The position numbers were made by a program, and so were the translations under genes. The notes under the pieces were generated by a model. The model made no database searches, had not been told where the DNA came from, and worked only from the letters and a program-made list of their open reading frames with translations. From contig BEHR01000007.1 of assembly GCA_002898555.1 (NCBI GenBank), positions 23,459 through 87,458 of the forward strand: a DNA stretch of 64,000 bases, given 5' to 3'. Of this stretch, positions 811 through 46,064 are shown piece by piece (position 1 is the first letter of the stretch; each line of letters begins with the position of its first letter). Origin of the DNA: a bacterium HR15. Lineage in GTDB: Bacteria > Armatimonadota > Fimbriimonadia > Fimbriimonadales > GBS-DC.

Positions 811-2829
811 ATGGACTGGCGAAATTACCCCTTTTGTATGGCGGTCTTGGACGAATTGCAGCGGGCGCGGCGCACTGCCGAAGAGGTCGCTGCGGAGGAG
901 CATAAATTCGAGGACGGGTTCACTGTCCGCACCTTCCTTGGACTGCTGTTTGTGGCGTTCGTGATGCTGCCCGGCAGCATTTACATGGGGCTGGTGGCGG
1001 GGGTGGGCTTAGGCTCCGCCGCGGAATGGGTCACTATTGTGCTGTTTGCGGAAGTGATGCGTCGCTCGCTCCAGCCCCTGAAACGGCAAGAGATTTACAT
1101 GCTGTTTTATATTGCAGCCTCACTCACCGCGATGGGGCTGTACGGGCTGTCGGGCGGGCCATTACAATGGAAAATTTGGGATCAGTTCTTTGTGCAGTCG
1201 GCGCCCGCCACGCCCTTTGCGAGGGAGATTCCTCACTGGGCGGTGCCAGCCCCCGATTCGCCTGCCCTGCGTGAGCGTACCTTTCTCCATCCCGACTGGA
1301 CGCTCCCGCTGGTGCTGTTGGTTATTACGGAGATTCTGGGGCGTGCCAGCTGGATGAGCATGGGCTATCTGCTCTTTCGGATGACTTCCGATGTGGAGCG
1401 GTTGCCCTTCCCCCTGGCGCCTGTGGCGGCATCGGGCGCGCTGGCACTGGCAGAGGCGGGACGACGCGAGGAATCGTGGCGCTGGGGCGTCTTCTCCACC
1501 GGTGCCGTGGTGGGCATGGTGTTTGGCTTCTTCTATCTGGCAATCCCCGTGTTTACAGGTACGCTGTTTGGCAACGCGGTGCAGATTATCCCCATCCCCT
1601 TCCTGGACCTGACGCAAAATACGGAGAGCCTGCTGCCGACCGCCATCGTGGGCGTGTCGCTCAATTTGGGCGAGGTGCTGCTCGGCTTCGTGCTGCCCTA
1701 TCAAGTCGTGTTAGGCTCCACCATCAGCTCCGTGCTCACTTATATTGCTGCGAATCCCCTGCTTTATAAGCTGGGTCTCATTTCCCATTGGCAGCCGAAC
1801 TCACCCGCCATCCAAACCAAAATCGCCGTCGATATCGACTTCTGGCTGGCGATTATCGTGGGGCTGCAGGTGGCAGTCGCTGTGATTGGAATCGCGATGG
1901 TGATACGCACCATGCGTGAGGCGCGCGCCTCACGCGCTTTCCAGAGGCGCAATGCAGGGGCGCTTCCTCCGCCTGGACGCGGCGATCCACCCCTCTGGAT
2001 CCCAGCACTTGTCTGGCTCATCTCGGTGACCTCGTACATCCTGCTTTGTCGCTGGCTGGTGCCAGAGTTCCCGCTCTGGATTGTGGTGGGCTTCGGGCTG
2101 TTCTGGAGTCCGCTCAACAGCTATGTGTCTGCGCGTATGATCGGACTGACGGGACAAGGTGTGTCGGTGCCGTTTCTAAAGGAGGCAGCGGTTATCAGCA
2201 GTGGCTATCCGAAAGTAGACATCTGGTACGCACCGCTGCCTTTTCAGGACCATGGGTGGGCAGCCCAGCGATTCCGCGAGGTAGAGTTGACCGGCACCAA
2301 GTTCACCAGTATCCTGAAGGCAGAAGTGCTTATGCTGCCCACAATTTTCATCGCGAGCTTCCTGTTCTGGTCGTTCTTCTGGCGTGCCAGCCCCATTCCC
2401 TCGTCGATGTTCCCCTACGCGATGAACATGTGGCCCTATTTCGCGCAGATGGACGCCGTGTGGAAGCAGATTAACCGCCCGGAGAGCGAGATGCGCGAGC
2501 TGGTGCTGGGTGCGTTGAACCTGCCGCGTATTGGCATCGGCTTTCTGGCGGGGATGGGGTTGTACTGGCTGTTCAGCGCGTTTAAGATGCCCCTGCTGCT
2601 CTTCTATGGACTGGTGGGTGGTGTGGGCCAGTTTCCCCACTACCTGCTGCCACGCTTGCTGGGTGCATGGTTGGGGCGTCGCTATTTCCGCAAGCGTTTT
2701 GGCGAAGAGAACTGGATTCGCTATGCACCTGTGCTGTTGGCGGGATTCTTCTGCGGGCTGGGGCTGATCGGCATGTTCGCAATCGCACTTGCACTGATTG
2801 CCAAATCGGTGTCGGTGCTGCCCTTTTAA
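811..2829 (+). CDS. polytopic membrane transporter, OPT-superfamily-like (tentative)
   Basis: ORF 637..2829 is a long, very hydrophobic protein with many TM segments and a by-eye resemblance to bacterial OPT oligopeptide transporters. The 637 start overlaps the trxB start codon region, so I prefer the in-frame ATG at 811 (MDWRNYPF...). ATGs at 784 and 838 are alternatives. Confidence 0.5.
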   Translation: MDWRNYPFCMAVLDELQRARRTAEEVAAEEHKFEDGFTVRTFLGLLFVAFVMLPGSIYMGLVAGVGLGSAAEWVTIVLFAEVMRRSLQPLKRQEIYMLFYIAASLTAMGLYGLSGGPLQWKIWDQFFVQSAPATPFAREIPHWAVPAPDSPALRERTFLHPDWTLPLVLLVITEILGRASWMSMGYLLFRMTSDVERLPFPLAPVAASGALALAEAGRREESWRWGVFSTGAVVGMVFGFFYLAIPVFTGTLFGNAVQIIPIPFLDLTQNTESLLPTAIVGVSLNLGEVLLGFVLPYQVVLGSTISSVLTYIAANPLLYKLGLISHWQPNSPAIQTKIAVDIDFWLAIIVGLQVAVAVIGIAMVIRTMREARASRAFQRRNAGALPPPGRGDPPLWIPALVWLISVTSYILLCRWLVPEFPLWIVVGFGLFWSPLNSYVSARMIGLTGQGVSVPFLKEAAVISSGYPKVDIWYAPLPFQDHGWAAQRFREVELTGTKFTSILKAEVLMLPTIFIASFLFWSFFWRASPIPSSMFPYAMNMWPYFAQMDAVWKQINRPESEMRELVLGALNLPRIGIGFLAGMGLYWLFSAFKMPLLLFYGLVGGVGQFPHYLLPRLLGAWLGRRYFRKRFGEENWIRYAPVLLAGFFCGLGLIGMFAIALALIAKSVSVLPF

Positions 2830-2865
2830 AGGGAGCGAATCGAATCCGCTCACTGGTCATTGAGG

Positions 2866-2871
2866 TATAAT
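2866..2871 (+). promoter_or_regulatory. -10 box TATAAT placed 7 nt upstream of the methyltransferase ATG (leaderless arrangement)
   Basis: The sequence reads gaggTATAATcaaagcgATG. There is no Shine-Dalgarno between the box and the ATG at 2879. Confidence 0.45.
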
Positions 2872-2878
2872 CAAAGCG

Positions 2879-3778
2879 ATGAAACCGTCTACCCAATCAC
2901 AGGAGGAACAGGCACAGCCTTTAGACCTGGAGCTATTTTATGCTGAGGAGGTGTCCGAGGCAACGGTTCTCTATGATGCGCGGCGCGCTAATGAACTGGA
3001 TGGGGCGACTTGGACGCGCTATTCCATTTCTATCTGGAGCGACATTCGTAAGACAGCTGAAGAGGTTGCCCTGAAACATCCCGCCATGTTCCCTGCCGCA
3101 CTGCCTGCTCGGCTCATCGAATGCTACACGCGCCGTGGGATGACCGTGCTCGATCCCTTCTTAGGAGTAGGCAGTACCCTGATCGCTGCCAAACAGTTGG
3201 GTAGGCATGGCATCGGCATCGAGCTGAATCCTGAATATGCCCGCATTGCAGAAACCCGACTGGAAACGCTCACCCTGGAACAGGAGTGGAGCGAATCTGG
3301 GGAGAAAGTAGACTGTCGTGTTTATGTGGGCGATGCAAACGAATTGGATCAGTTCGTGGAACCCGAAAGCATCGATCTGGTTGTAACTTCTCCACCTTAC
3401 TGGGATATTCTGCTGGAAAAGCGTACGGCTGACTACAAGCCTATTCGCCACTACGGCGGGGAGGAAAAGGATTTAGGCAAGATTCGTGACTATAATCAAT
3501 TTCTGAAAGCGATTCAGTCGATTTTCCGTAAGGTGTATACGGTTCTCAAACCTGGAGCCTACTGCTGTGTCGTGGTGATGGACATCCGCAAAAAAAATCG
3601 TTTTTATCCCTATCACTCCGATCTCGCGATGCATCTTCAGGAAGTTGGTTTTATTTATGATGATCTTATTATCTGGGATCGACGGCATGAGTACAACAAC
3701 CTGCGCCCTTTGGGCTACCCTTCTGTATTCCGTATTAATAAAGTGCATGAATTTATCTTGATTTTGCAGCGACCGTAG
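2879..3778 (+). CDS. N4-cytosine or N6-adenine DNA methyltransferase (N6_N4_Mtase type, SPPY catalytic motif, permuted motif order)
   Basis: The AdoMet motif I (VLDPFLGVGSTLIAAKQLGRHGIGIELNP, preceded by HPAMFPAALPARLIE) lies N-terminal. The catalytic motif IV (DLVVTSPPYWD) lies C-terminal to it. The gene is visibly more AT-rich than its neighbours. Confidence 0.85.
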   Translation: MKPSTQSQEEQAQPLDLELFYAEEVSEATVLYDARRANELDGATWTRYSISIWSDIRKTAEEVALKHPAMFPAALPARLIECYTRRGMTVLDPFLGVGSTLIAAKQLGRHGIGIELNPEYARIAETRLETLTLEQEWSESGEKVDCRVYVGDANELDQFVEPESIDLVVTSPPYWDILLEKRTADYKPIRHYGGEEKDLGKIRDYNQFLKAIQSIFRKVYTVLKPGAYCCVVVMDIRKKNRFYPYHSDLAMHLQEVGFIYDDLIIWDRRHEYNNLRPLGYPSVFRINKVHEFILILQRP

Positions 3779-3787
3779 AAGAACGCC

Positions 3788-4714
3788 ATGGACTATTTCG
3801 ATGCAGATGTCGCTTACCTTGTGGGGCTTATCGTTGCCAGGGGGCAGCTGATTGAGCAGGGCGAGGAACGGCGCATCCTTGTTGAGTTTCCCGGCTCTAC
3901 CCTGCAAGTGGAGGGCACCCATTCTGCTTTCGATCAACCCACAGAAATCAAGTTGGGATTGGTCGATATTGCTTGGCGTCTGCGTAATCTACTAGAGACG
4001 GATATAGATATTATTAGCAGTACTCATGGAAACCATACACTATTGGTACACTTCCACAGAAACAACATGATATGGCGCAACCTCCGTCTAATATTAGGTA
4101 GTGCGACACATTTTGGAACATTTACACTACCTAATGTTCTGTTTGATCGAGATACTCCCCTGGAGTGGAAGCACGAGTTTTTGCGCGGTTTCGCTGATGT
4201 GGCGGGTAATATCCGCAGAGCCAACCGTTATGTGGACGGGCGCAATCGGGTGCGCTTGGATGTGCTGAACTATAAGGATAACTGGAAATTACCTGTTCAG
4301 CTCTGTGAACTCTTACAAGATCACTTAAGTATTCCTGTTCAGCTCATCGCTTGGGGGCATCCCAACATGGGCAGAGATTTTCGTGAACATCAACTGAACA
4401 TTTTTGCAGTTCCCTTTCGAAAAATAGGTTTTACCTTCCGACATAAGCAAATAGTTCTCGAAGAATTAGCCCAAGAAGATGAAAAAAACTTCCCCAACGC
4501 GCAGTATATGCCTTGTCCTGGGGAGCGTGCCCTACGACGCACAAAAGAATCCGATGAACGCGAAGCGGACACTCTCCATCTCCCACCAAAACTTTGCGGA
4601 AAACACTTTGACGCCTATTGGCAAATCTGTAGGCAGTTGGGCTGCCGAAAACGCCCTGCTGTGCAAGATATTTCCTATGAAGAGGATGTTGAACAGGAGG
4701 TAATACCAGAATGA
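3788..4714 (+). CDS. double LAGLIDADG-like protein with both catalytic acidic residues substituted
   Basis: Two LAGLIDADG-type helices are present: AYLVGLIVARGQL near the N-terminus and EFLRGFADVAGNIRR at about residue 131. Each is followed by sequence consistent with the beta-beta-alpha-beta-beta-alpha pattern. The C-terminal tail is Cys/His-containing (CPGE...LCGKH...ICRQLGC). The start lies 9 nt after the methyltransferase stop. Confidence 0.6.
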   Translation: MDYFDADVAYLVGLIVARGQLIEQGEERRILVEFPGSTLQVEGTHSAFDQPTEIKLGLVDIAWRLRNLLETDIDIISSTHGNHTLLVHFHRNNMIWRNLRLILGSATHFGTFTLPNVLFDRDTPLEWKHEFLRGFADVAGNIRRANRYVDGRNRVRLDVLNYKDNWKLPVQLCELLQDHLSIPVQLIAWGHPNMGRDFREHQLNIFAVPFRKIGFTFRHKQIVLEELAQEDEKNFPNAQYMPCPGERALRRTKESDEREADTLHLPPKLCGKHFDAYWQICRQLGCRKRPAVQDISYEEDVEQEVIPE

Positions 4715-5223
4715 CACTTCAGAAGGAGCAGGAGATGTATCCTGCAGTTGAGCAGTGGTTGCGAAGATATTTACAGCAGCGTTATCCTCGTCAGCGAATT
4801 ATAACACAAGTGTGTGCGTTCAGGAGACTTAATAAACTGATTAACCAACTCGGAATCGGAGCGTTGCTCCCTCATGAATGGGCGTCGTGGGATGTGCAGG
4901 TGGACATAGTAGGCTTCGTGTGTAGCGCGCAAAAAGCCTCGATTGTCTTAATTGAATGTAAAAGTAGACCTATTGCACTTCCCCATCTCTCCCAGATGAT
5001 CGGCTATTGCCGGGTGGTCAGACCAGCGATGGGGTTGATTCTCTCGCCAAAAGGTATTAGCAACTCGTTGAAAAGACTTCTCACCATCTTTGGTCGGCAA
5101 GATGTGCTGGTCTATGATCAACCTCATCAGCAAGCAGCGCGGTATGTGACCTTGGCTCGCTGGGATGCTCAAAGCAAGTCGCCTGATGCGAGCAGTGTAG
5201 TTCCGTCAGGCGGTTTGTCTTAA
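4711..5223 (+). CDS. small PD-(D/E)XK-fold nuclease-like protein
   Basis: Motif pattern is an N-terminal helix with E (YPAVEQWL), then VQVDIVGF (D), then IVLIECKSR (E-x-K). The ATG overlaps the upstream stop (ATGA), which implies translational coupling. Confidence 0.6.
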   Translation: MTLQKEQEMYPAVEQWLRRYLQQRYPRQRIITQVCAFRRLNKLINQLGIGALLPHEWASWDVQVDIVGFVCSAQKASIVLIECKSRPIALPHLSQMIGYCRVVRPAMGLILSPKGISNSLKRLLTIFGRQDVLVYDQPHQQAARYVTLARWDAQSKSPDASSVVPSGGLS

Positions 5224-26321: not shown

Positions 26322-26386
26322 AAGGCAAGGCTGGCAATCTCACCATGCATTTGCCAGCACACTGGCATAATGGAGGAGGTCATACG

Positions 26387-27268
26387 ATGCGACATGGTAG
26401 AGGCTTTCGAGGCTTTACGCTGATCGAGTTGCTGGTCGTGATTGCGATTATCGCCATCTTGGCGGCGATCCTGTTCCCCGTGTTCGCTCAGGCGCGCGAG
26501 GCTGCTCGTACAACAAGTTGCTTAAGCAATAACAAGCAGATGGGAGCAGCCGTCCTTATGTACGCGAATGACTACGACGAAATGATTGTCCCCGTCATGG
26601 TCTATGCGCCCCAGGGCGCCACACGCTTCTCCCAGGCATACCGGACATGGATTGTACTGGTGCAACCATATATGAAGAACACTGGAATTATTATCTGTCC
26701 TAATGCTATTTACCAGAACAAAGACATAGACACCATTGATACATGGCTCTCGTACGGGATCATGGCAAGGACAGAAGTGTGCGGCTTGCGCCAGTACTGG
26801 AAAGTAGCTGATGCGGGGAGCACAAGGCAGTTAGGTATTGTGGGTGCCATCTACCAAGGCATTGCTGGATACGCTGGACCTCCTGTTTGGGGACTGCAGC
26901 GTGTCACACCCAGCATGACCCTTGGGCAGATTGCCCGCCCTGCCGAGGTTGCTATGGTTCAGGATAGCGGCAATTTCGACACTTGGCATGGTGTCTTTTG
27001 TGATCAAGGAGGTAGTGATGGCTACGGACTGGGCTATTGCGGAGCATGGATCGTTAATGGTCAACAACTAGAGTTCCAGCGTTTTGGTCCCCATCCACGC
27101 CATAAAAGTGGGGAGCGCACCTGTAGTGTGCAGGGCTTTGTTGGGGGTACGCTGGATGTCGTCTATGTGGATGGACATGCGAAGACCATTAAAAATGGCC
27201 AGTTTCTCCGTTGGGCAACTCTCCCGGATGGTCGTAAGTATCTCCCGAGCTATTGGCCTTTTGAATAA
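26387..27268 (+). CDS. prepilin-type N-terminal cleavage/methylation domain protein, DUF1559-like pseudopilin
   Basis: The ATG at 26387 follows GGAGGAGG. The N-terminus is [41 protein letters not shown], a class III signal (G/FTLIE). A C-terminal [11 protein letters not shown] motif is present. Confidence 0.85.
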
Positions 27269-27280
27269 GGAGGCGAAGCC

Positions 27281-27508
27281 ATGCACATGGAAATTCCGAA
27301 ACCCATTGCAGTTGCGATCATCGTCGTAATAGCAGCAGTAGCACTCTTTGTGGTCTACTACTTTGCTGGTGGACAACAGCAAACCGCTAAATCACCGGGC
27401 GTGCTGCCACCTAATGTACAGTTAGGACCAGGAGTAGGTGGTGGAGCGTCTACTCCTAATGCCACGCCTGCTCCACAAAATCCACAAGGGGCTGTCGAAC
27501 TGCGCTGA
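27281..27508 (+). CDS. small single-pass membrane protein with Pro/Gly-rich tail (pseudopilin-associated, copy 1)
   Basis: 75 aa, with AAGGAGG upstream. It has one TM helix (IAVAIIVVIAAVALFVVYYF) followed by a low-complexity P/G/Q tail. The layout matches the ORFs at 30451 and 31498. Confidence 0.6.
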   Translation: MHMEIPKPIAVAIIVVIAAVALFVVYYFAGGQQQTAKSPGVLPPNVQLGPGVGGGASTPNATPAPQNPQGAVELR

Positions 27509-27525
27509 AAGAACATCCAAGTCTA

Positions 27526-27566
27526 AAGCCTTGCCAACCGCCAAGTAGGGCTGGTTGGCAAGGCTT
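27526..27566. terminator. bidirectional hairpin between convergent genes
   Basis: A perfect 14-bp stem (AAGCCTTGCCAACC / GGTTGGCAAGGCTT) with a 13-nt loop. Short T-runs lie on both sides (TTT on the reverse-strand reading). Confidence 0.6.
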
Positions 27567-27594
27567 CGTTGACATATGTTCCGAGCGGACGCAA

Positions 27595-28941
27595 TTAACA
27601 ACCCCGCCCTAGGTTGATCAACACGATTAGCAGATCAGCATCGTCCACGCAACCATCCTGATTAATATCGGCAGAACCGCACCTGCCGCAACATCCCCAT
27701 GCCATAAGCACTGCTATCAGGTCCGCATCACTAACACACCCATCGCAGTCGATATCTCCAAAAGGTTCAAGGGGACAAACTGTATCTAAAGTATATCCCA
27801 TCTCTCTCATCGCCCCACGCGTAAGCACAAGGTTAAACCCCCAGCCTACAATATAGCGCCCATTAGGAGTGATAGCTGCTCCAGCGGCAAGATGCGAGAT
27901 CGGATCACCCGGCAGCAGGTGAGCATATGTCTGATTGAGATCCTCCATTCCTCGTGCTGGTGTCCAACGAAAAGCATGTAGCCGGCGATCAGAATTGCTC
28001 GCTTCGCCAACAACAATAAAGCCATCTGCAGAGACATCATAGGCACGACTATAACTGCCACCCGGTAAAATTCCGAGATCTTGCATACCATCTGTTGATG
28101 TCCATCGAAAAGCATGGATGGTACCTTCTGCCGTCTTAGATTCTCCAACTACAATTGTTCCATTTTCTGATATACCGTAGGCACAGCTATAGTTGCCTCC
28201 AAGAGTGCCTAGGTCTTGTACGAGATATACACCTGAACAGTCAGCGTACCAACGAACGGCATGAACTTCGCCATCAGGCGTTTCTGCACAGCCACTGATC
28301 CAGTGTCCATCCGCTGAGACTGCGTAAGCAATGCTTCGGCGTCCCCCTAAGGTACCCAAGTCCTGCATACGCCCGCAGGCTTCTTCCCAACGGAACGCTC
28401 TCATAACTCCTTCATTATTGTCTGCCCATCCCACCACAACTGCTCCATCTGCCGAGACATCGTAAGCCCAGCTAAGTTCACCTCCTAAGGTGCCCAGGTT
28501 CTGCATAGATCCTCCTACCCAGCGAAAAGCATTATGGACTACCCATGCCTCTGGACAACCAGATACACCTACAACTATAGAGCCATTTGCAGAAATGCCA
28601 AAGGCCCAACTCCAATTGTTTGCAGGGGGATCGCAAATTTCAAGGGTGCCTAAGTTACTTGACGGCGCTACGTATGATGTCCCATAGTTGGCGATCCAAG
28701 TCGAAGCATTAAACATCGATTCTAAACCTCCAAAGTATGCTTGGCCAACTACTAACAAACCATCTGGCGTAACGTGCTGGGCTCGGCTCCAGTTGCCACC
28801 ATGCATGGGATCATCTGGTGCTCCGTCGAAAGGAAGAAGCCATACCAGGCTCGGAGTCTGCGAACATGCAATGCCGGTCAGCAATATCGCTAGTAGTGTT
28901 GCCAGATTCAATCCGAAGTTGCGTTTCAGCGCTTTCATCAT
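27595..28941 (-). CDS. secreted HAF-family repeat protein with C-terminal Cys-rich dockerin-type module
   Basis: 448 aa with a signal peptide and lipobox-like LTGIAC. It has repeated GTLGG..S.AY.VSADG..VVG...HAFRW units. The C-terminus carries two Ca-loop-like segments (DIDCDGCVSDADL and DINQDGCVDDADL). The gene is markedly AT-richer than its flanks. Confidence 0.75.
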   Translation of the reverse strand: MMKALKRNFGLNLATLLAILLTGIACSQTPSLVWLLPFDGAPDDPMHGGNWSRAQHVTPDGLLVVGQAYFGGLESMFNASTWIANYGTSYVAPSSNLGTLEICDPPANNWSWAFGISANGSIVVGVSGCPEAWVVHNAFRWVGGSMQNLGTLGGELSWAYDVSADGAVVVGWADNNEGVMRAFRWEEACGRMQDLGTLGGRRSIAYAVSADGHWISGCAETPDGEVHAVRWYADCSGVYLVQDLGTLGGNYSCAYGISENGTIVVGESKTAEGTIHAFRWTSTDGMQDLGILPGGSYSRAYDVSADGFIVVGEASNSDRRLHAFRWTPARGMEDLNQTYAHLLPGDPISHLAAGAAITPNGRYIVGWGFNLVLTRGAMREMGYTLDTVCPLEPFGDIDCDGCVSDADLIAVLMAWGCCGRCGSADINQDGCVDDADLLIVLINLGRGC

Positions 28942-29053
28942 TTGTCCCTCCTAGCTTTACTGATCCCTTAGATCCTTACTGCAGCGACTACGCTGCGTCA
29001 ACGCATTACCCTAACAGTGCAGGGGAGTCAGACTCTCTGCAACACTGCCCCTC

Positions 29054-29088
29054 ATTATACCCCATTCCTTGGAGCATTTGTCAAGGGG
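29054..29088 (-). promoter_or_regulatory. sigma70-like promoter copy P1 for the HAF gene (TTGACA-19-TATAAT)
   Basis: The reverse strand reads ccccTTGACAaatgctccaaggaatggggTATAATg. Confidence 0.5.
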
Positions 29089-29119
29089 TTCAGGGAATTT
29101 TTCCCTTATTTTCTCTTCT

Positions 29120-29154
29120 ATTATACCCCATCTCTGGGGCATTTGTCAATGGGG
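29120..29154 (-). promoter_or_regulatory. sigma70-like promoter copy P2 (TTGACA-18-TATAAT), tandem duplicate of P1
   Basis: The reverse strand reads ccccaTTGACAaatgccccagagatggggTATAATag. It is a direct repeat of 29054..29088 with a few substitutions. Confidence 0.5.
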
Positions 29155-29181
29155 CAAGAGGGTGTTCAAAAATTCGCGTAG

Positions 29182-29348
29182 ACAATCACCACCCACACCC
29201 AACACACAAAATTACCCTCCCCAACCAACTGCACCAAACCCACTATGTTCCACAACACAAACATCCCCCACACCCACAATCGAGCACCCACCCACGAACG
29301 CGAACGCCATACGCTCCCATACGCACCCTGCACACCCACAAACACAAA
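29182..29348 (+). repeat. strand-asymmetric C/A-rich, G-depleted low-complexity tract
   Basis: By my count there are only 2 G in 29182..29280 and 11 G across the whole tract. It is built from CACCC/ACACA/CCAAC-type short motifs. The track ORFs across it translate to low-complexity P/T/H-rich strings. Confidence 0.7.
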
Positions 29349-29349
29349 T

Positions 29350-29389
29350 TTTTCTTTTCCGGGGTATCCCGCTGGGTCGGAAAAGAAAA
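29350..29389. terminator. perfect 12-bp A/T-rich hairpin with flanking T-run
   Basis: TTTTCTTTTCCG - 16-nt loop - CGGAAAAGAAAA, followed by TTTT on the + strand. It sits between divergent genes, directly after the C/A tract. Confidence 0.45.
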
Positions 29390-29479
29390 TTTTCCCGCTC
29401 TATCCAATAACGACCCCGCAACGCTCAACCATACACCTCCGCGCGTGCACACGCGCCCACTTGGCCACTGCTAATTTCC

Positions 29480-29515
29480 CATTAAGCAGGAATCGCAGGC
29501 AAAATGGTGTATAAT
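29480..29515 (+). promoter_or_regulatory. conserved 16-mer CATTAAGCAGGAATCG plus TATAAT, 14 nt apart (pseudopilin promoter, copy 2)
   Basis: The 16-mer lies at 29480..29495 and TATAAT at 29510..29515, the same architecture as 26286..26321. Confidence 0.5.
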
Positions 29516-29601
29516 AGACATGACCCTTGCCGCCCGGCGCATGCTGGGCGTATTTAGTGAACCTGCCAGCGCTGGGCGGATCGGGTGAAGGAGGTCAGGT
29601 A

Positions 29602-30441
29602 ATGCGATATAATAGAGGCTTCACTTTGATCGAGTTGCTGGTCGTGATTGCGATTATCGCCATTTTGGCGGCGATCCTGTTCCCGGTGTTCGCTCAGGCG
29701 CGCGAGAAGGGGCGGCAATCCACTTGCGCCTCTAACCACAACCAGCTGGGCAAAGCCATTCTGATGTATGCCAGTGATAACGAGGAAGTGCTGGTGCCCA
29801 GTCGCCTCGTACCCGGCAACAACCCAAACAGCCCTGGTGTCAGGATATGGCAGGAGTTGGTCGCGCCCTATGTGAAGAATGTGGATGTCTACTTCTGTCC
29901 CAATGGGCGCAAACCCCCTGGGAACAGTCCCTTTGTACCCAGTTGGGCGACACGCGGCTGGCCTTCTATCGGCTATAACGCGCATATCTCTGGCTGGTAC
30001 TGGGTCGGTGGGGGCTTACCGGGCGACCCGGATGAGACCCTGATGGTGCCCAACCGCTCCATGATTAAGAAACCTGCCCAGTTCGTGTTGCTGGCGGACG
30101 CGCCCAACGGCGACAATAATGCACCCTACAACTGCCGTGGCTACTTGACCGACAACAACTGGTATGGCGGTTGCAGTGGCGATCCGACAGGGCGGCAACA
30201 CCGTACGGACATTACATCCTATGTAGGTGTCGGCATTATGGCACGCCATTCAGGCGGACTGAACATCGGCTTTGCTGATGGGCATACCAAATGGTTCCGC
30301 CTCGAGCAGGTGCTGCCCTACACCCCACAGCAGTTCGCAGCCCTCTATCCAGGTCGCACCTGCCGCTTTGTCGACGAGTATCGCGATTTCAACGCGGCAA
30401 AGACGCACTGGGTCATCTTCAACACCTGCAACCCGGATTAG
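29602..30441 (+). CDS. prepilin-type N-terminal domain protein, H-X9-DG/DUF1559 pseudopilin
   Basis: The ATG at 29602 follows GAAGGAGG. The N-terminus is [58 protein letters not shown] is an exact H-X9-DG motif. Confidence 0.9.
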
Positions 30442-43318: not shown

Positions 43319-43393
43319 TGGTGGGCAGTGCTGGACTCGAACCAGCGACCTCTTCGGTGTGAACGAAGCACTCTACCACTGAGCTAACTGCCC
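43319..43393 (-). tRNA. tRNA-Val (anticodon CAC), CCA encoded
   Basis: The reverse complement reads GGGCAGTTAGCTCAGTGGTAGAGTGCTTCGTTCACACCGAAGAGGTCGCTGGTTCGAGTCCAGCACTGCCCACCA. The anticodon loop is TTCACAC. Confidence 0.9.
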
Positions 43394-43395
43394 TC

Positions 43396-43481
43396 TGGTG
43401 CGCGGGGTGGGACTCGAACCCACACAGGCTAAGCCCACATGGCCCTCAACCATGCGTGTCTACCAATTCCACCACCCGCGC
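43396..43481 (-). tRNA. tRNA-Leu (anticodon GAG), CCA encoded
   Basis: The reverse complement reads GCGCGGGTGGTGGAATTGGTAGACACGCATGGTTGAGGGCCATGTGGGCTTAGCCTGTGTGGGTTCGAGTCCCACCCCGCGCACCA. It has a long variable arm and anticodon loop TTGAGGG. Confidence 0.9.
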
Positions 43482-43534
43482 AGCAAGCCAATCATGCCTC
43501 AAACGCGGTCTCGGTTTATCAAGGGGTTTCGAGG

Positions 43535-45814
43535 TCATCTACCGTTTGAGTCTTTCCCTTCATAACCAACCTGCGTTTCGAAAAGCGCCAGTTGCAGAGG
43601 CTCGCTTGAATGCTGAGGCATTTCCGATAAAGCCATATTGTGGAACATCATCAGCGCACTCAGGAACCACTCCTGCGACGGTTCCCAGCCCTCACCTACG
43701 CAACTGGCAGAGCGCAGCAACTCACCGACATAGTGCAGGTACAGCAAGTTGCGGTTACCGCTGTGTGGATACTGTCCGACAACCTGTTGTGCACGCGCCA
43801 ACGCGTCCTCAGGAGCATGAGACAACACCATATAGGGTTGCGACTGCTTCTGACACATTAGTACCAGATCCGCATCCAGTGCTTGCTTGTTGCGGATATG
43901 GGGGTTGACACGATACTCGCTCTGAACGGGGAAGAAGTCCACGATGCGGAAACCGCTCCGCCGGACGGCACAGAAAATCGTCCACCAGGCACGGGGATTC
44001 GTGTGATGGAAAGTGAAAATCAGCTGTCCTTGCTCCTTCAGCACGCGATGGCACTCGCGAAAAACCGCCGTGAGCAGATTCAGATACTCTTTCTCGCTCT
44101 TGCCTTGCCCTTTGTTCACAACAGCTTCACCCTCAGTAGGAACCAGCTCTGTACGGAAGCATGGGTCTCTCACTAATCGAGAGAGCCAAACATAGAAAAA
44201 GTTCGACAGCTCTGAGTAATGCACATTATCGTAGTAAGGAGGATCGGTAATCACAAGGTCGATGCTGGCATCGGGGATGGCTGTTAGCCGCGCCGAGTCA
44301 CCACACAAGAGCATCGCTCCTCGCTCGGTTTGCATGAGCGCTGCAAAACTTTCCACGAGCTGCGCCCCTATCCACTCTGTGTTAGCATACCGTGTAATCA
44401 CTTCGCCTGCGCGGCTCTTGTATCGCTCAAACGGCTTTTGGCAGTAGAGCTTCGCTTTTCGATAGCGCTGATAGCAATTAACAAAGGTACCCGCACCTTC
44501 TTCACCAACCCCCCACACATTGCTCTCCACAGGCATTGTAGTTAGCGGTAATGCATGATAGTTGAACAGGTGATGTAACTTGCGATGCGGATAATTGTAC
44601 GGTGTCATCATGTTATTGTATTCAAGCATGTTCGAAACAACGGTGTAGAAGCAGTTTTGGTACTCAGGGTCTTCAATCTGTTGGATGGCGCGTATCAGGG
44701 TATTCAGCGATAACAATTGACGCTTATTGAACAGGTCGCGATAGCGATGATAACCGTGTTGAATCCAACGACGCGAGGAGGTGCCTAATGGTATTTGTGT
44801 GTTGGGCAGAATGAGTTCAGATTCTTGCGTGTGAAACAACTGCTCTATCTGCTGGAGCCGTTCCCGGTCAACGGTGTCAGGCGATTTATACAGACGCGTG
44901 TTGCAGGTGGGGCACCAATATTCTATAGCGATAAGCATTTCACTCAAAGACGCGCCTTTGCGAATGGTCTCAAGCAGGTTGATGGGCTCAGAGGTGCAAC
45001 GGCAGTGGTAATAGCCATGAGTGTAATTCCCCTGTCGGGGATCGAAGACATGCTTGCACTGTGGGCATATCGCCAGTGAATCACCTCCCCATTGAAAAAG
45101 ACGGAGACATCGCGAGCAGAATACGGTTGCAGGATTAGCATGGGACAAAGGACGGTTTCTGCTCGCACCCTCGTTGAGCAAGGTGCGCTTATAAAGCAAA
45201 ACGCACTGCTGACAGTGCGGGCATGGAACATGGCGTATCCAAAATGCATAGAGGGTTTCGCCCACCGCACCGCATTCGGAACACTGCGTTTGATAGTATT
45301 GCTTGATTTGCTCGCCCGCGGTAGCAGCGATTTGCTGAAAGTAGGAGTCCAGCCGCTCGATATCTATGATTTTCAAGTTCTCGCGTCCAATCCAGTAGGC
45401 AACAGGATTAAGGTCACAGCCAATCACGCGCGCACCCATTCGGTTGGCTTCTACCAAAGTAGTTCCCCCGCCCATAAAGGGGTCAAGGATCACCCATTCG
45501 CTCAGATTGTGATTCTGAAAGTAAGGGGAGTGCGGTTCCAGATCCCCCAGCTGGTTCACTGTGAGAAGTGTCTCTCGCAGTTCAGGATGCGTTGCCAGCA
45601 GGATAATCGCGCGAAACAGGGTCCCGGGGCGCCGTGCCCACCATTTATGCAGGGAGTAAATGGGTCGATAATGCTGGCGCTTGCCTGTCTCGTCCTGCGC
45701 TAGCTTGCTAATGAGCTGTGCCACCTGCAAGCTCGGAGCCAATCGCGACAACTCCTTAGAAGGGGTCATCTTCGTAAAATACACAGCCATCTTCGGGTCT
45801 GGATATTTGGTCAT
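43535..45814 (-). CDS. Zn-ribbon-containing DNA methyltransferase (COG1743 / DUF1156-type, DPPY motif)
   Basis: ORF 43535..45886. The ATG at 45814 has a GGGAG SD. It carries the N-terminal IYSLHKWWARRP hallmark, motif I (LDPFMGGGTTLVEANRMGARVIGCDLNP), several CxxC pairs (CSECG..CPHCQ, CSRC..CPQCK, CPTC) and motif IV (DLVITDPPYYDNVHY). The gene is AT-richer than its flanks. Confidence 0.8.
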   Translation of the reverse strand: MTKYPDPKMAVYFTKMTPSKELSRLAPSLQVAQLISKLAQDETGKRQHYRPIYSLHKWWARRPGTLFRAIILLATHPELRETLLTVNQLGDLEPHSPYFQNHNLSEWVILDPFMGGGTTLVEANRMGARVIGCDLNPVAYWIGRENLKIIDIERLDSYFQQIAATAGEQIKQYYQTQCSECGAVGETLYAFWIRHVPCPHCQQCVLLYKRTLLNEGASRNRPLSHANPATVFCSRCLRLFQWGGDSLAICPQCKHVFDPRQGNYTHGYYHCRCTSEPINLLETIRKGASLSEMLIAIEYWCPTCNTRLYKSPDTVDRERLQQIEQLFHTQESELILPNTQIPLGTSSRRWIQHGYHRYRDLFNKRQLLSLNTLIRAIQQIEDPEYQNCFYTVVSNMLEYNNMMTPYNYPHRKLHHLFNYHALPLTTMPVESNVWGVGEEGAGTFVNCYQRYRKAKLYCQKPFERYKSRAGEVITRYANTEWIGAQLVESFAALMQTERGAMLLCGDSARLTAIPDASIDLVITDPPYYDNVHYSELSNFFYVWLSRLVRDPCFRTELVPTEGEAVVNKGQGKSEKEYLNLLTAVFRECHRVLKEQGQLIFTFHHTNPRAWWTIFCAVRRSGFRIVDFFPVQSEYRVNPHIRNKQALDADLVLMCQKQSQPYMVLSHAPEDALARAQQVVGQYPHSGNRNLLYLHYVGELLRSASCVGEGWEPSQEWFLSALMMFHNMALSEMPQHSSEPLQLALFETQVGYEGKDSNGR

Positions 45815-46064
45815 AGCCACGCTCCCTGTAGAACTCCAGAAAGTTTGCGCGATATTCAGAACTACAGAAAGGGAACTCATCGTCAAACTCGCGCCTTAGG
45901 TGTCTAAGCACCCTGCTTCCAAGCGATTCGGCACGTTGCTCGCTGAACGCCGCTTGATACCAGCTGATGAGCTGGCTCTCCTGAATGACGCCATTAATCC
46001 TGTGCCCTAACTGCTCAGCCACTCGTGTGATAGTGTCTACTTCTGCGTCGCGACAGACAATCAC
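45756..46064 (-). CDS. hypothetical small acidic protein upstream of, and overlapping, the methylase start
   Basis: 102 aa with a GTG start and no recognisable motif. It overlaps the first codons of the methylase in another frame. Coding status is uncertain. Confidence 0.35.
   Translation of the reverse strand: MIVCRDAEVDTITRVAEQLGHRINGVIQESQLISWYQAAFSEQRAESLGSRVLRHLRREFDDEFPFCSSEYRANFLEFYRERGYDQISRPEDGCVFYEDDPF

Follow-up and report, generated by a model that had tools for sequence, protein, structure and literature searches.

A LAGLIDADG-fold protein without the canonical catalytic acids, coupled to a methylase and a small nuclease: a candidate two-subunit restriction enzyme

Introduction

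Why would a protein that resembles a homing endonuclease, and that lacks the residues with which such enzymes cut DNA, be encoded between a DNA methylase and a separate nuclease? The question is raised by open reading frame (ORF) 2 (3788-4714, plus strand; 308 amino acids, ATG at 3788, stop codon ending at 4714) in a 64,000-nucleotide stretch of the bacterium HR15 genome (contig BEHR01000007.1, positions 23,459 to 87,458; hereafter the window, whose numbering we use throughout). Its product has been deposited before (100% identity) as "hypothetical protein HRbin15_00772 [bacterium HR15]", from a hot-spring metagenome bin. The answer that we consider probable is that ORF2 and the gene that follows it, ORF3, encode a two-subunit Type II restriction enzyme, in which a dead LAGLIDADG scaffold would serve as the recognition subunit and a small PD-(D/E)XK nuclease as the cutter. 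Below we describe the predicted folds and their conservation, the genomic company that the two proteins keep, and the other explanations that have to be weighed.

The fold of ORF2

A first-pass annotation, made from the DNA sequence, had described ORF2 as a LAGLIDADG-like protein with two degenerate motifs and a Cys/His-containing tail, and all of the short strings that it quoted (LVGLIVARG, LRGFADVAG, CPGE, LCGKH and ICRQLGC) are located in the protein. However, a nine-residue motif of this type is weak evidence by itself, and sequence-level searches did not add to it. ORF2 matched no profile in Pfam, NCBIfam, PADLOC or PHROG (for Pfam and NCBIfam even at E<=10), the Pfam LAGLIDADG_1, LAGLIDADG_2, LAGLIDADG_3 and Hom_end profiles included, and searches of Protein Data Bank (PDB) sequences, with either the single sequence or a profile, gave chance matches only (E about 0.3). 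Because the sequence-only searches returned nothing, the assignment needed fold recognition.

We modeled ORF2 with AlphaFold2, template-free, from an alignment of 32 sequences of the close family. The model has a mean predicted local distance difference test (pLDDT) score of 88.7 and a predicted template modelling score of 0.88, and its secondary structure follows the two alpha-beta-beta-alpha-beta-beta-alpha repeats required for the LAGLIDADG superfamily. With H for helix and E for strand, domain 1 comprises H6-18, E19-24, E27-34, an extra small hairpin, H50-69, E72-77, E83-89 and H94-103, and domain 2 comprises H125-139, E140-143, E154-159, H168-180, E184-188, E201-206 and H218-234. A Foldseek search of the PDB with this model gave 57 matches at E<=1e-3, the head of the list being almost purely LAGLIDADG proteins: the best match was I-Tsp061I (E 3.7e-8, template modelling (TM) score 0.70 on the target), and I-AniI, bI3 maturase, I-DmoI, E-DreI, PI-SceI and WhiA were also among the top ones. 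The viral structure library BFVD agreed, with 92 matches that were mostly intein endonuclease domains and free-standing LAGLIDADG enzymes. Of the checks that the annotation had suggested for its assignment, structure prediction with Foldseek thus finds the fold, whereas the sequence profiles are silent. This fold evidence is independent of the motif and strong, and on the basis of the model we regard ORF2 as a double-domain member of the LAGLIDADG superfamily at the fold level.

The Cys/His tail is also present as described (CPGE...LCGKH...ICRQLGC; 4514-4645, residues 243-286). Within the close-family alignment C243, H273, C281 and C286 are invariant, and the region is modeled with a confidence of 82-95, suggesting that the tail is probably a structural zinc site.

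Loss of the catalytic acids throughout the ORF2 family

The two degenerate motifs are LVGLIVARG (3818-3844, residues 11-19) and LRGFADVAG (4181-4207, residues 132-140), which place Arg18 and Ala139 at the catalytic position. In the model these two residues close the motif helices, directly before the first strand of each domain. The catalytic Asp or Glu of the LAGLIDADG fold sits at the end of the motif helix, as exemplified by D20 of I-CreI and by D21 and E117 of I-DmoI; R18 and A139 therefore occupy the site of the catalytic acids.

The ORF2 family comprises 418 matches in a collection clustered at 90%, or 326 representatives at 50% clustering, and 285 distinct members could be aligned to the family hidden Markov model (HMM) for residue counts (totals differ slightly by column). 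The eighth position of motif 1 is Arg in 253 members, Lys in 16, Asn in 8, His and Gly in 3 each, and Ser and Gln in 1 each; the corresponding position of motif 2 is Ala in 227, Thr in 18, Ser in 13, Cys in 11, Gly in 8, Ile in 4 and Val in 3. In none of the 285 members is the eighth residue of either motif an Asp or a Glu. The earlier claim that both metal-binding positions are replaced, by Arg and Ala, thus extends well beyond the sequence on which it was made: the missing acids are a property of the whole family. The packing glycines, as had also been claimed, are retained (G13 and G19 in 285/285, G134 in 282/284, G140 in 251/284), and Asp137, at position 6 of motif 2, is conserved in 282/284.

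The most conserved motif family-wide, above any putative base-contacting residue, lies elsewhere: in GHPNMGRDFREHQ (4355-4393, residues 190-202), which forms the β3-β4 turn of domain 2 and contains GHPN (190-193) and EHQ (200-202). H191 is found in 279/286 members, P192 in 285/286, E200 in 270/281, H201 in 272/280 and Q202 in 259/281, and in relatives insertions lengthen the loop between the two halves by up to about 16 residues. Over all subfamilies the strongest polar conservation is at D137, R154, H191, P192, E200, H201, Q202 and K220.

This pattern raises the question of whether ORF2 is dead at all, or is instead a nicking subunit with a non-canonical active site in domain 2 composed of residues such as D158, E200, H191, H201 and K220. 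The GHPN...EHQ residues, K220 and D137 outrank the putative base-contacting positions in conservation, and, given the LAGLIDADG sheet order of 1-2-4-3, topology puts the β3-β4 turn, the C-terminal end of β2 and the C-terminus of the LAGLIDADG helix all at one end of the sheet. From the same topology, K220 and D158 (D/E/Q in the family) presumably sit roughly where K98 and Q47 do in I-CreI. A single ORF3 active site could not by itself make a double-strand break, and a large nicking subunit that works with a small catalytic subunit has precedent (PMC3017599). Nevertheless, we regard such a site as unlikely: a canonical acid is absent from all 285 members, and in 269 of them the motif-1 position is taken by Arg or Lys, as if the shared metal site had been deliberately blocked. 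From the H-L-I alternation H201 appears to face the core, an orientation more in keeping with a buried structural or metal site that includes C173 than with a catalytic one. For the GHPN...EHQ region as a whole, a relocated active site, a buried structural metal site that includes C173 and a docking surface for ORF3 are all possible roles.

ORF3, the small nuclease

ORF3 (4711-5223, plus strand) encodes a 170-residue protein with an isoelectric point (pI) of 9.85, which we propose as the catalytic subunit. A word-indexed search with the single sequence found one close relative only; orthologues were then drawn from the corresponding loci in other genomes, giving an alignment of 32, and the profile search was repeated. 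Mean identity in this alignment is only 39%, and Y10, W16, D65, E82, K84, Q95 and Y99 are invariant. Asp65 (4903-4905; 32/32 orthologues, and 36/36 in a second count) is the predicted "PD" element and Glu82-Cys-Lys84 (4954-4962) the predicted "(D/E)XK" element of a PD-(D/E)XK active site. Q95-xxx-Y99 (4993-5007) follows, and a QxxxY after the ExK element is the pattern of RecB-type PD-(D/E)XK nucleases.

AlphaFold2 predicts the expected alpha-beta-beta-beta-alpha-beta core with an N-terminal helix (pLDDT 92.8). D65 and E82/K84 fall at the ends of strands E66-71 and E76-83 or next to them, and helix H90-103 comes next. Foldseek matched the model to the nuclease domain of MspJI (the top match), NucS/EndoMS, AF1548, McrC, AspBHI, PaqCI, EcoRI, BamHI and FokI. 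At the sequence level there were sub-threshold Pfam matches to HSDR_N_2, NucS_C and NA-iREase1 (E 0.02-0.2), and the ORF3 profile gave chance matches only against PDB sequences. Taken from sequence and model together, ORF3 keeps an intact PD-(D/E)XK site, and the separate nuclease to which the first-pass annotation had linked ORF2 can be identified with this product. The MspJI match had raised the possibility of a modification-dependent (Type IV) role, which we rejected, since a cognate methylase is always found alongside.

In size ORF3 is close to the smallest stand-alone restriction enzymes, and like restriction enzymes it evolves fast (39-44% mean identity, versus 52-62% for ORF2). One might then ask whether ORF3 is a complete small Type IIP enzyme and ORF2 a DNA-binding regulator, analogous to the C proteins of restriction-modification (R-M) systems, or an antitoxin-like inhibitor, which would time or restrain the expression or activity of the nuclease; the cassette encodes no separate C protein, and WhiA shows a dead LAGLIDADG scaffold serving as a transcription factor (PMC3240954). 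However, apart from the nuclease core and the N-terminal helix the ORF3 model shows nothing that would evidently serve recognition, and a 308-residue protein that is more conserved than its target enzyme would be unlike known C proteins. We return to this proposal below, where the architectures of the relatives bear on it.

The methylase and the three-gene cassette

The gene upstream of ORF2 (2879-3778, plus strand; 299 amino acids) encodes a DNA methyltransferase of the N6_N4 family, which matches PF01555 at 7e-38 and PADLOC Type II methyltransferase models down to 1.6e-50. Its closest solved relative is TTHA0409 (2zie; 1.5e-31), followed by N4-cytosine methyltransferases. Motif I (FLGVG, 3158-3172) lies before motif IV (SPPY, 3389-3400), an order that is permuted relative to the Pfam beta-class profile. 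We take the SPPY motif to point to N4-cytosine methylation, and the sequence suggests that N4 of cytosine is what this enzyme modifies.

A methylase this small, with permuted motifs, leaves little room for a large target-recognition domain, and, as shown below, all three genes co-evolve tightly; both facts would suit an arrangement in which ORF2 is a specificity subunit of LAGLIDADG fold shared by methylase and nuclease, in the manner of the S subunits of Type I and IIB systems. We think this very improbable. PADLOC contains stand-alone Type II methyltransferase models of equal length with which the protein is colinear (residues 34-294 align to 23-288 of the 294-position profile PDLC03363), and in some relatives the ORF2-ORF3 pair accompanies a large fused N6-adenine and C5-cytosine methylase, and methylases of that type normally bring recognition domains of their own.

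ORF2 and ORF3 are translationally coupled (4697-4714, plus strand): the end of ORF2 contains a GGAGG Shine-Dalgarno sequence nine bases upstream of the ORF3 ATG, and the stop and start codons overlap in ATGA at 4711-4714. The three genes stand out from their surroundings, with a GC content of 48.7% versus 58.7% for the remainder of the window and a third-position GC content of 45-53% versus about 70% in the flanking genes. Only 0.3% of cassette-sized windows are equally or more GC-poor, and this low GC content, overall and at third positions, therefore indicates horizontal acquisition. At the borders of the cassette we found no convincing terminal direct or inverted repeats and no target duplication, and a scan for promoters and terminators did no better on the cassette than on shuffled sequence.

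A scan for similar loci, taking one genome per species, yielded 65. They span at least eight phyla (Chloroflexota, Armatimonadota, Poribacteria, Acidobacteriota, Latescibacterota, Myxococcota, Planctomycetota and Hydrothermota), and the cassettes are inserted between unrelated housekeeping genes. The first-pass annotation had called the coupling of such a protein to a methylase and a separate nuclease unusual; with a PF01555 methylase on one side and a PD-(D/E)XK protein on the other, that coupling turns out to be tighter than was supposed. The order methylase-ORF2-ORF3, on one strand, holds in essentially every locus with sufficient flank (about 65 loci, each from a different species), the pairwise-identity matrices of the three proteins correlate with r = 0.89-0.92 (49 loci, that is, 48 other genomes plus the window), and single-chain fusions of ORF2 and ORF3 occur. 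The three genes co-evolve.

Three features that one looks for in a Type II R-M system are present: a methylase lies beside the nuclease gene in all loci examined, the nuclease has an intact catalytic motif, and the distribution is sporadic and mobile (at least eight phyla, a plasmid, a phage and low GC). Four loci (L057, L067, L069 and L072) hold frameshifted or remnant copies, and some lineages appear to be losing the system. Such copies are common among R-M genes. In three of these four genomes a frameshift interrupts the ORF2 homologue but the methylase and ORF3 are apparently intact; in Candidatus Fervidibacter sacchari only an ORF2 fragment remains.

Fused, giant and methylase-exchanged forms

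In several lineages ORF2 and ORF3 are found as one protein of 540-557 amino acids, in which an ORF2-like part, its domain 1 carrying a zinc-ribbon insert, is joined through a charged linker to an ORF3-like part. As judged from sequence, these fusions constitute a Rosetta-stone link between the pair. In one locus (L073) a 557-residue fusion (P0161), whose insert in domain 1 has the form CPxC...CxxC, is followed by a second, free ORF3-like gene of 165 residues (the two together at 1187-3354) and by a methylase of the same family. The ExK element of the free gene reads N-R-E-L-K and may be shifted or degenerate. The fusion and the free protein could be a heterodimeric nuclease pair, and this arrangement counts against a nicking role for ORF2, since it points to a second PD-(D/E)XK domain as the source of the second cut.

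A giant form also exists, with proteins of 900-1300 amino acids that have no Pfam domain and carry the ORF2-like domain at the C-terminus (P0184, P0178, P0181 and P0185). The gene for P0184 (L074, 306-5736) is followed by a methylase of the same family and by a 155-residue ORF with a PD...ELK signature. The N-terminal region of the giant proteins is roughly 1000 amino acids long. Other distant members have an N6_N4 methylase, a 156-167-residue ORF, or both, next to them, and ORF3-type relatives occur in an archaeal metagenome-assembled genome as well.

A different methylase accompanies the Firmicutes members, from Lactiplantibacillus plantarum plasmid p9 (NZ_CP060181) and a Lachnospiraceae gut phage (PV036410), where the ORF2/ORF3-like pair lies behind a 700-residue protein that joins an N6-adenine methylase (NPPF) to a C5-cytosine methylase (PPCQGFS). 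The pair is diverged (24-28% identity) and has lost the cysteines of the Cys/His tail, and is matched by the ORF2 HMM at 1e-49 to 1e-55 and by the ORF3 HMM at about 1e-41. Fused N6-adenine and C5-cytosine methylases are typical of systems with asymmetric recognition sites. The Eco31I/Esp3I/BsaI group is paired with methylases of this kind and is reported to be HNH; an identity with that group was considered and rejected, as ORF2 and ORF3 show no similarity to any PADLOC or Pfam restriction-enzyme model, which likewise led us to reject membership in any of those families. A Vsr-like repair role is also unlikely, because the pair accompanies N4/N6 as well as C5 methylases and ORF2 is always included. 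The host of plasmid p9 is cultivable.

Every architecture that we have seen contains ORF2 paired with ORF3: the two are an obligate pair that is able to exchange its methylase partner, and behave in this respect like the restriction half of an R-M system. That ORF2 merely regulates or restrains a complete ORF3 enzyme is hard to square with such obligate pairing and with covalent fusions in several lineages; moreover, we did not find a conserved operator-like repeat at the cassette borders. We consider a regulator or inhibitor quite improbable, and, of the two roles that the first-pass annotation had left open for a putative DNA-binding ORF2, we favor the specificity module over the regulatory one.

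A proposed model for a two-subunit enzyme

In the model that we propose, the three genes would constitute a horizontally mobile Type II R-M cassette in which the restriction enzyme consists of two separate proteins. ORF2 would be the monomeric, pseudo-dimeric LAGLIDADG scaffold that recognizes the sequence, with Arg18 probably filling the former shared metal site and Ala139 taking the place of the second acid. ORF3, as a minimal PD-(D/E)XK nuclease without a recognition domain, would be recruited by ORF2 and cut at or beside the bound site. A double-strand cut would probably need two ORF3 domains, an idea with which the additional ORF3-like gene next to the fusion at L073 agrees. The methylase would protect the host DNA by modifying the same site, its target there being probably N4 of cytosine. 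The analysis shows the fold, the missing catalytic residues, the intact ORF3 active site, the obligate linkage, the fusions and the change of methylase partner, from which we infer DNA binding by ORF2, recruitment of ORF3, the geometry of cleavage and protection by methylation.

How might ORF2 read DNA? The protein is asymmetric in charge, with a pI of 5.4 for domain 1, 8.9 for domain 2 and 9.2 for the tail, and the sheet of domain 1 has few conserved polar residues. In domain 2, two strands alternate polar and hydrophobic residues (R154-V-R156-L-D158-V and E200-H-Q202-L-N204-I), so that R154, R156, D158, E200, Q202 and N204 would share an exposed face, on which N141 and R143 would lie as well. 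It is this face of the sheet that contacts DNA in LAGLIDADG enzymes. We therefore propose these eight as the reading residues, with the exposed sheet of the basic domain 2 and the basic Cys/His tail providing most of the contacts. Positions 141 (N/F/Y), 156 (R/Y/F), 158 (D/E/Q) and 204 (N/K/R) switch between discrete states among subfamilies, a pattern that, at the level of sequence, is as expected for specificity determinants. Homing enzymes recognize sites of roughly 20 bp; a reader that relies mainly on one domain would presumably recognize a shorter site, which would be better suited to restriction.

Several observations weigh against this model. With an overall pI of 6.0 ORF2 is mildly acidic, which DNA-binding homing endonucleases typically are not. 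H191, P192, E200, H201, Q202, K220, R154 and D137 are more conserved, across subfamilies with different methylases, than would be expected of variable specificity contacts; fold topology puts them close to where domain 2 would have its canonical active site, and ORF2 may retain some chemistry. The fold matches of ORF3, though almost all to PD-(D/E)XK nucleases, are weak (best E 7.6e-4, TM scores 0.3-0.4). PvuII, a stand-alone Type IIP enzyme of the smallest type, has 157 amino acids and is thus about the size of ORF3, which could in principle itself recognize DNA. Finally, DNA binding, cleavage and the methylation target are all predictions from sequence or model.

Comparison with known systems

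ORF2 shares its tandem domains, Gly-mediated helix packing and beta-sheet saddle with the monomeric double-motif LAGLIDADG enzymes (I-Tsp061I, I-DmoI, I-AniI and the endonuclease domain of PI-SceI). It differs from them in having no Asp or Glu at the motif ends, no Pfam profile match and an added Cys/His tail, and its domain 1 is acidic, with a poorly conserved sheet. Its gene is neither within an intron or intein nor free-standing, as those of homing endonucleases are, but in the middle of a methylase-nuclease operon.

WhiA, which had been put forward as a parallel, is similar in having a degenerate double-LAGLIDADG core without catalytic acids, and two of its structures (3hyi and 3hyj) are among the fold matches of ORF2. 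The parallel holds by analogy only. Membership of ORF2 in the WhiA family was rejected, since it matches no WhiA profile in Pfam or NCBIfam and ends in the Cys/His tail rather than in a helix-turn-helix; the genomic context of WhiA is missing as well. WhiA is vertically inherited in Gram-positive bacteria, unlike the sporadic and mobile ORF2 family.

In mechanism the closest natural analogues are those heterodimeric Type IIS enzymes whose catalytic subunit is small. In heterodimeric Type IIS/IIT enzymes the small subunit is encoded by an adjacent ORF and is active only with the large one (PMC3017599). In BspD6I/BstNBI, BtsI and BsrDI, as in the arrangement proposed here, a large recognizing subunit has a small PD-(D/E)XK partner, of about 18-25 kDa; however, their large subunit is FokI-like or PD-(D/E)XK and nicks DNA, whereas ORF2 has a LAGLIDADG fold from which the canonical site is absent. 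The same logic, a dead scaffold that addresses a separate nuclease, has been used in the laboratory: the closest artificial analogues are inactive I-SceI joined to PvuII or MutH (PMC3627573), and inactive I-SceI or I-OnuI scaffolds have been combined with PvuII, MutH or I-TevI. Those constructs are engineered and act on 18-bp sites, whereas the ORF2 family is natural and methylase-linked, and its site is probably shorter.

Two large surveys of Type II enzymes (PMC4081073, PMC2441816) do not contain the word LAGLIDADG, the folds listed being PD-(D/E)XK, HNH, GIY-YIG, PLD and half-pipe. There was no solved restriction-enzyme structure among the 50 fold matches of ORF2 listed, and we found no description of a LAGLIDADG-fold R-M component in the open-access literature, although an earlier account elsewhere, for example in REBASE, is possible. 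Whether ORF2 and ORF3 represent an unrecognised class of restriction endonuclease, in which a dead meganuclease scaffold gives specificity to a detachable minimal PD-(D/E)XK cutter, is to our minds evenly balanced; such a class would have split, fused and giant multidomain forms, would be found in bacteria, plasmids and phages, and would work with a swappable methylase.

If this proves true, the family would be a natural counterpart and template, both split and fused, for the meganuclease-nuclease designs that have so far been built by hand, and, should the asymmetric two-domain scaffold read long or asymmetric sites, a source of new rare-cutting or re-engineerable enzymes. The homing-endonuclease scaffold would join the folds used in restriction-modification, in what would be the second natural reuse of a dead LAGLIDADG protein, after WhiA, and an evolutionary link between two great classes of selfish site-specific nucleases. 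It would also provide a function for a family of more than 300 sequence clusters that has no functional annotation in any source examined.

Other features of the window

Two further low-GC stretches deserve mention. The first (43319-45886) contains a 783-residue protein with DUF1156 and an N6_N4 DNA methylase domain (43535-45886, minus strand), beside genes for tRNA-Val and tRNA-Leu (43319-43481, minus strand). This methylase has no obvious nuclease partner, the next gene being an AcrB-type transporter, and could be either an orphan or what is left of a defence gene. The second (26345-30441; GC about 52%) has a strongly negative GC skew. It contains a 448-residue ORF (27595-28941, minus strand) without a Pfam match, flanked by two prepilin-type N-terminal-methylation/DUF1559 proteins (26345-27268 and 29527-30441, plus strand).

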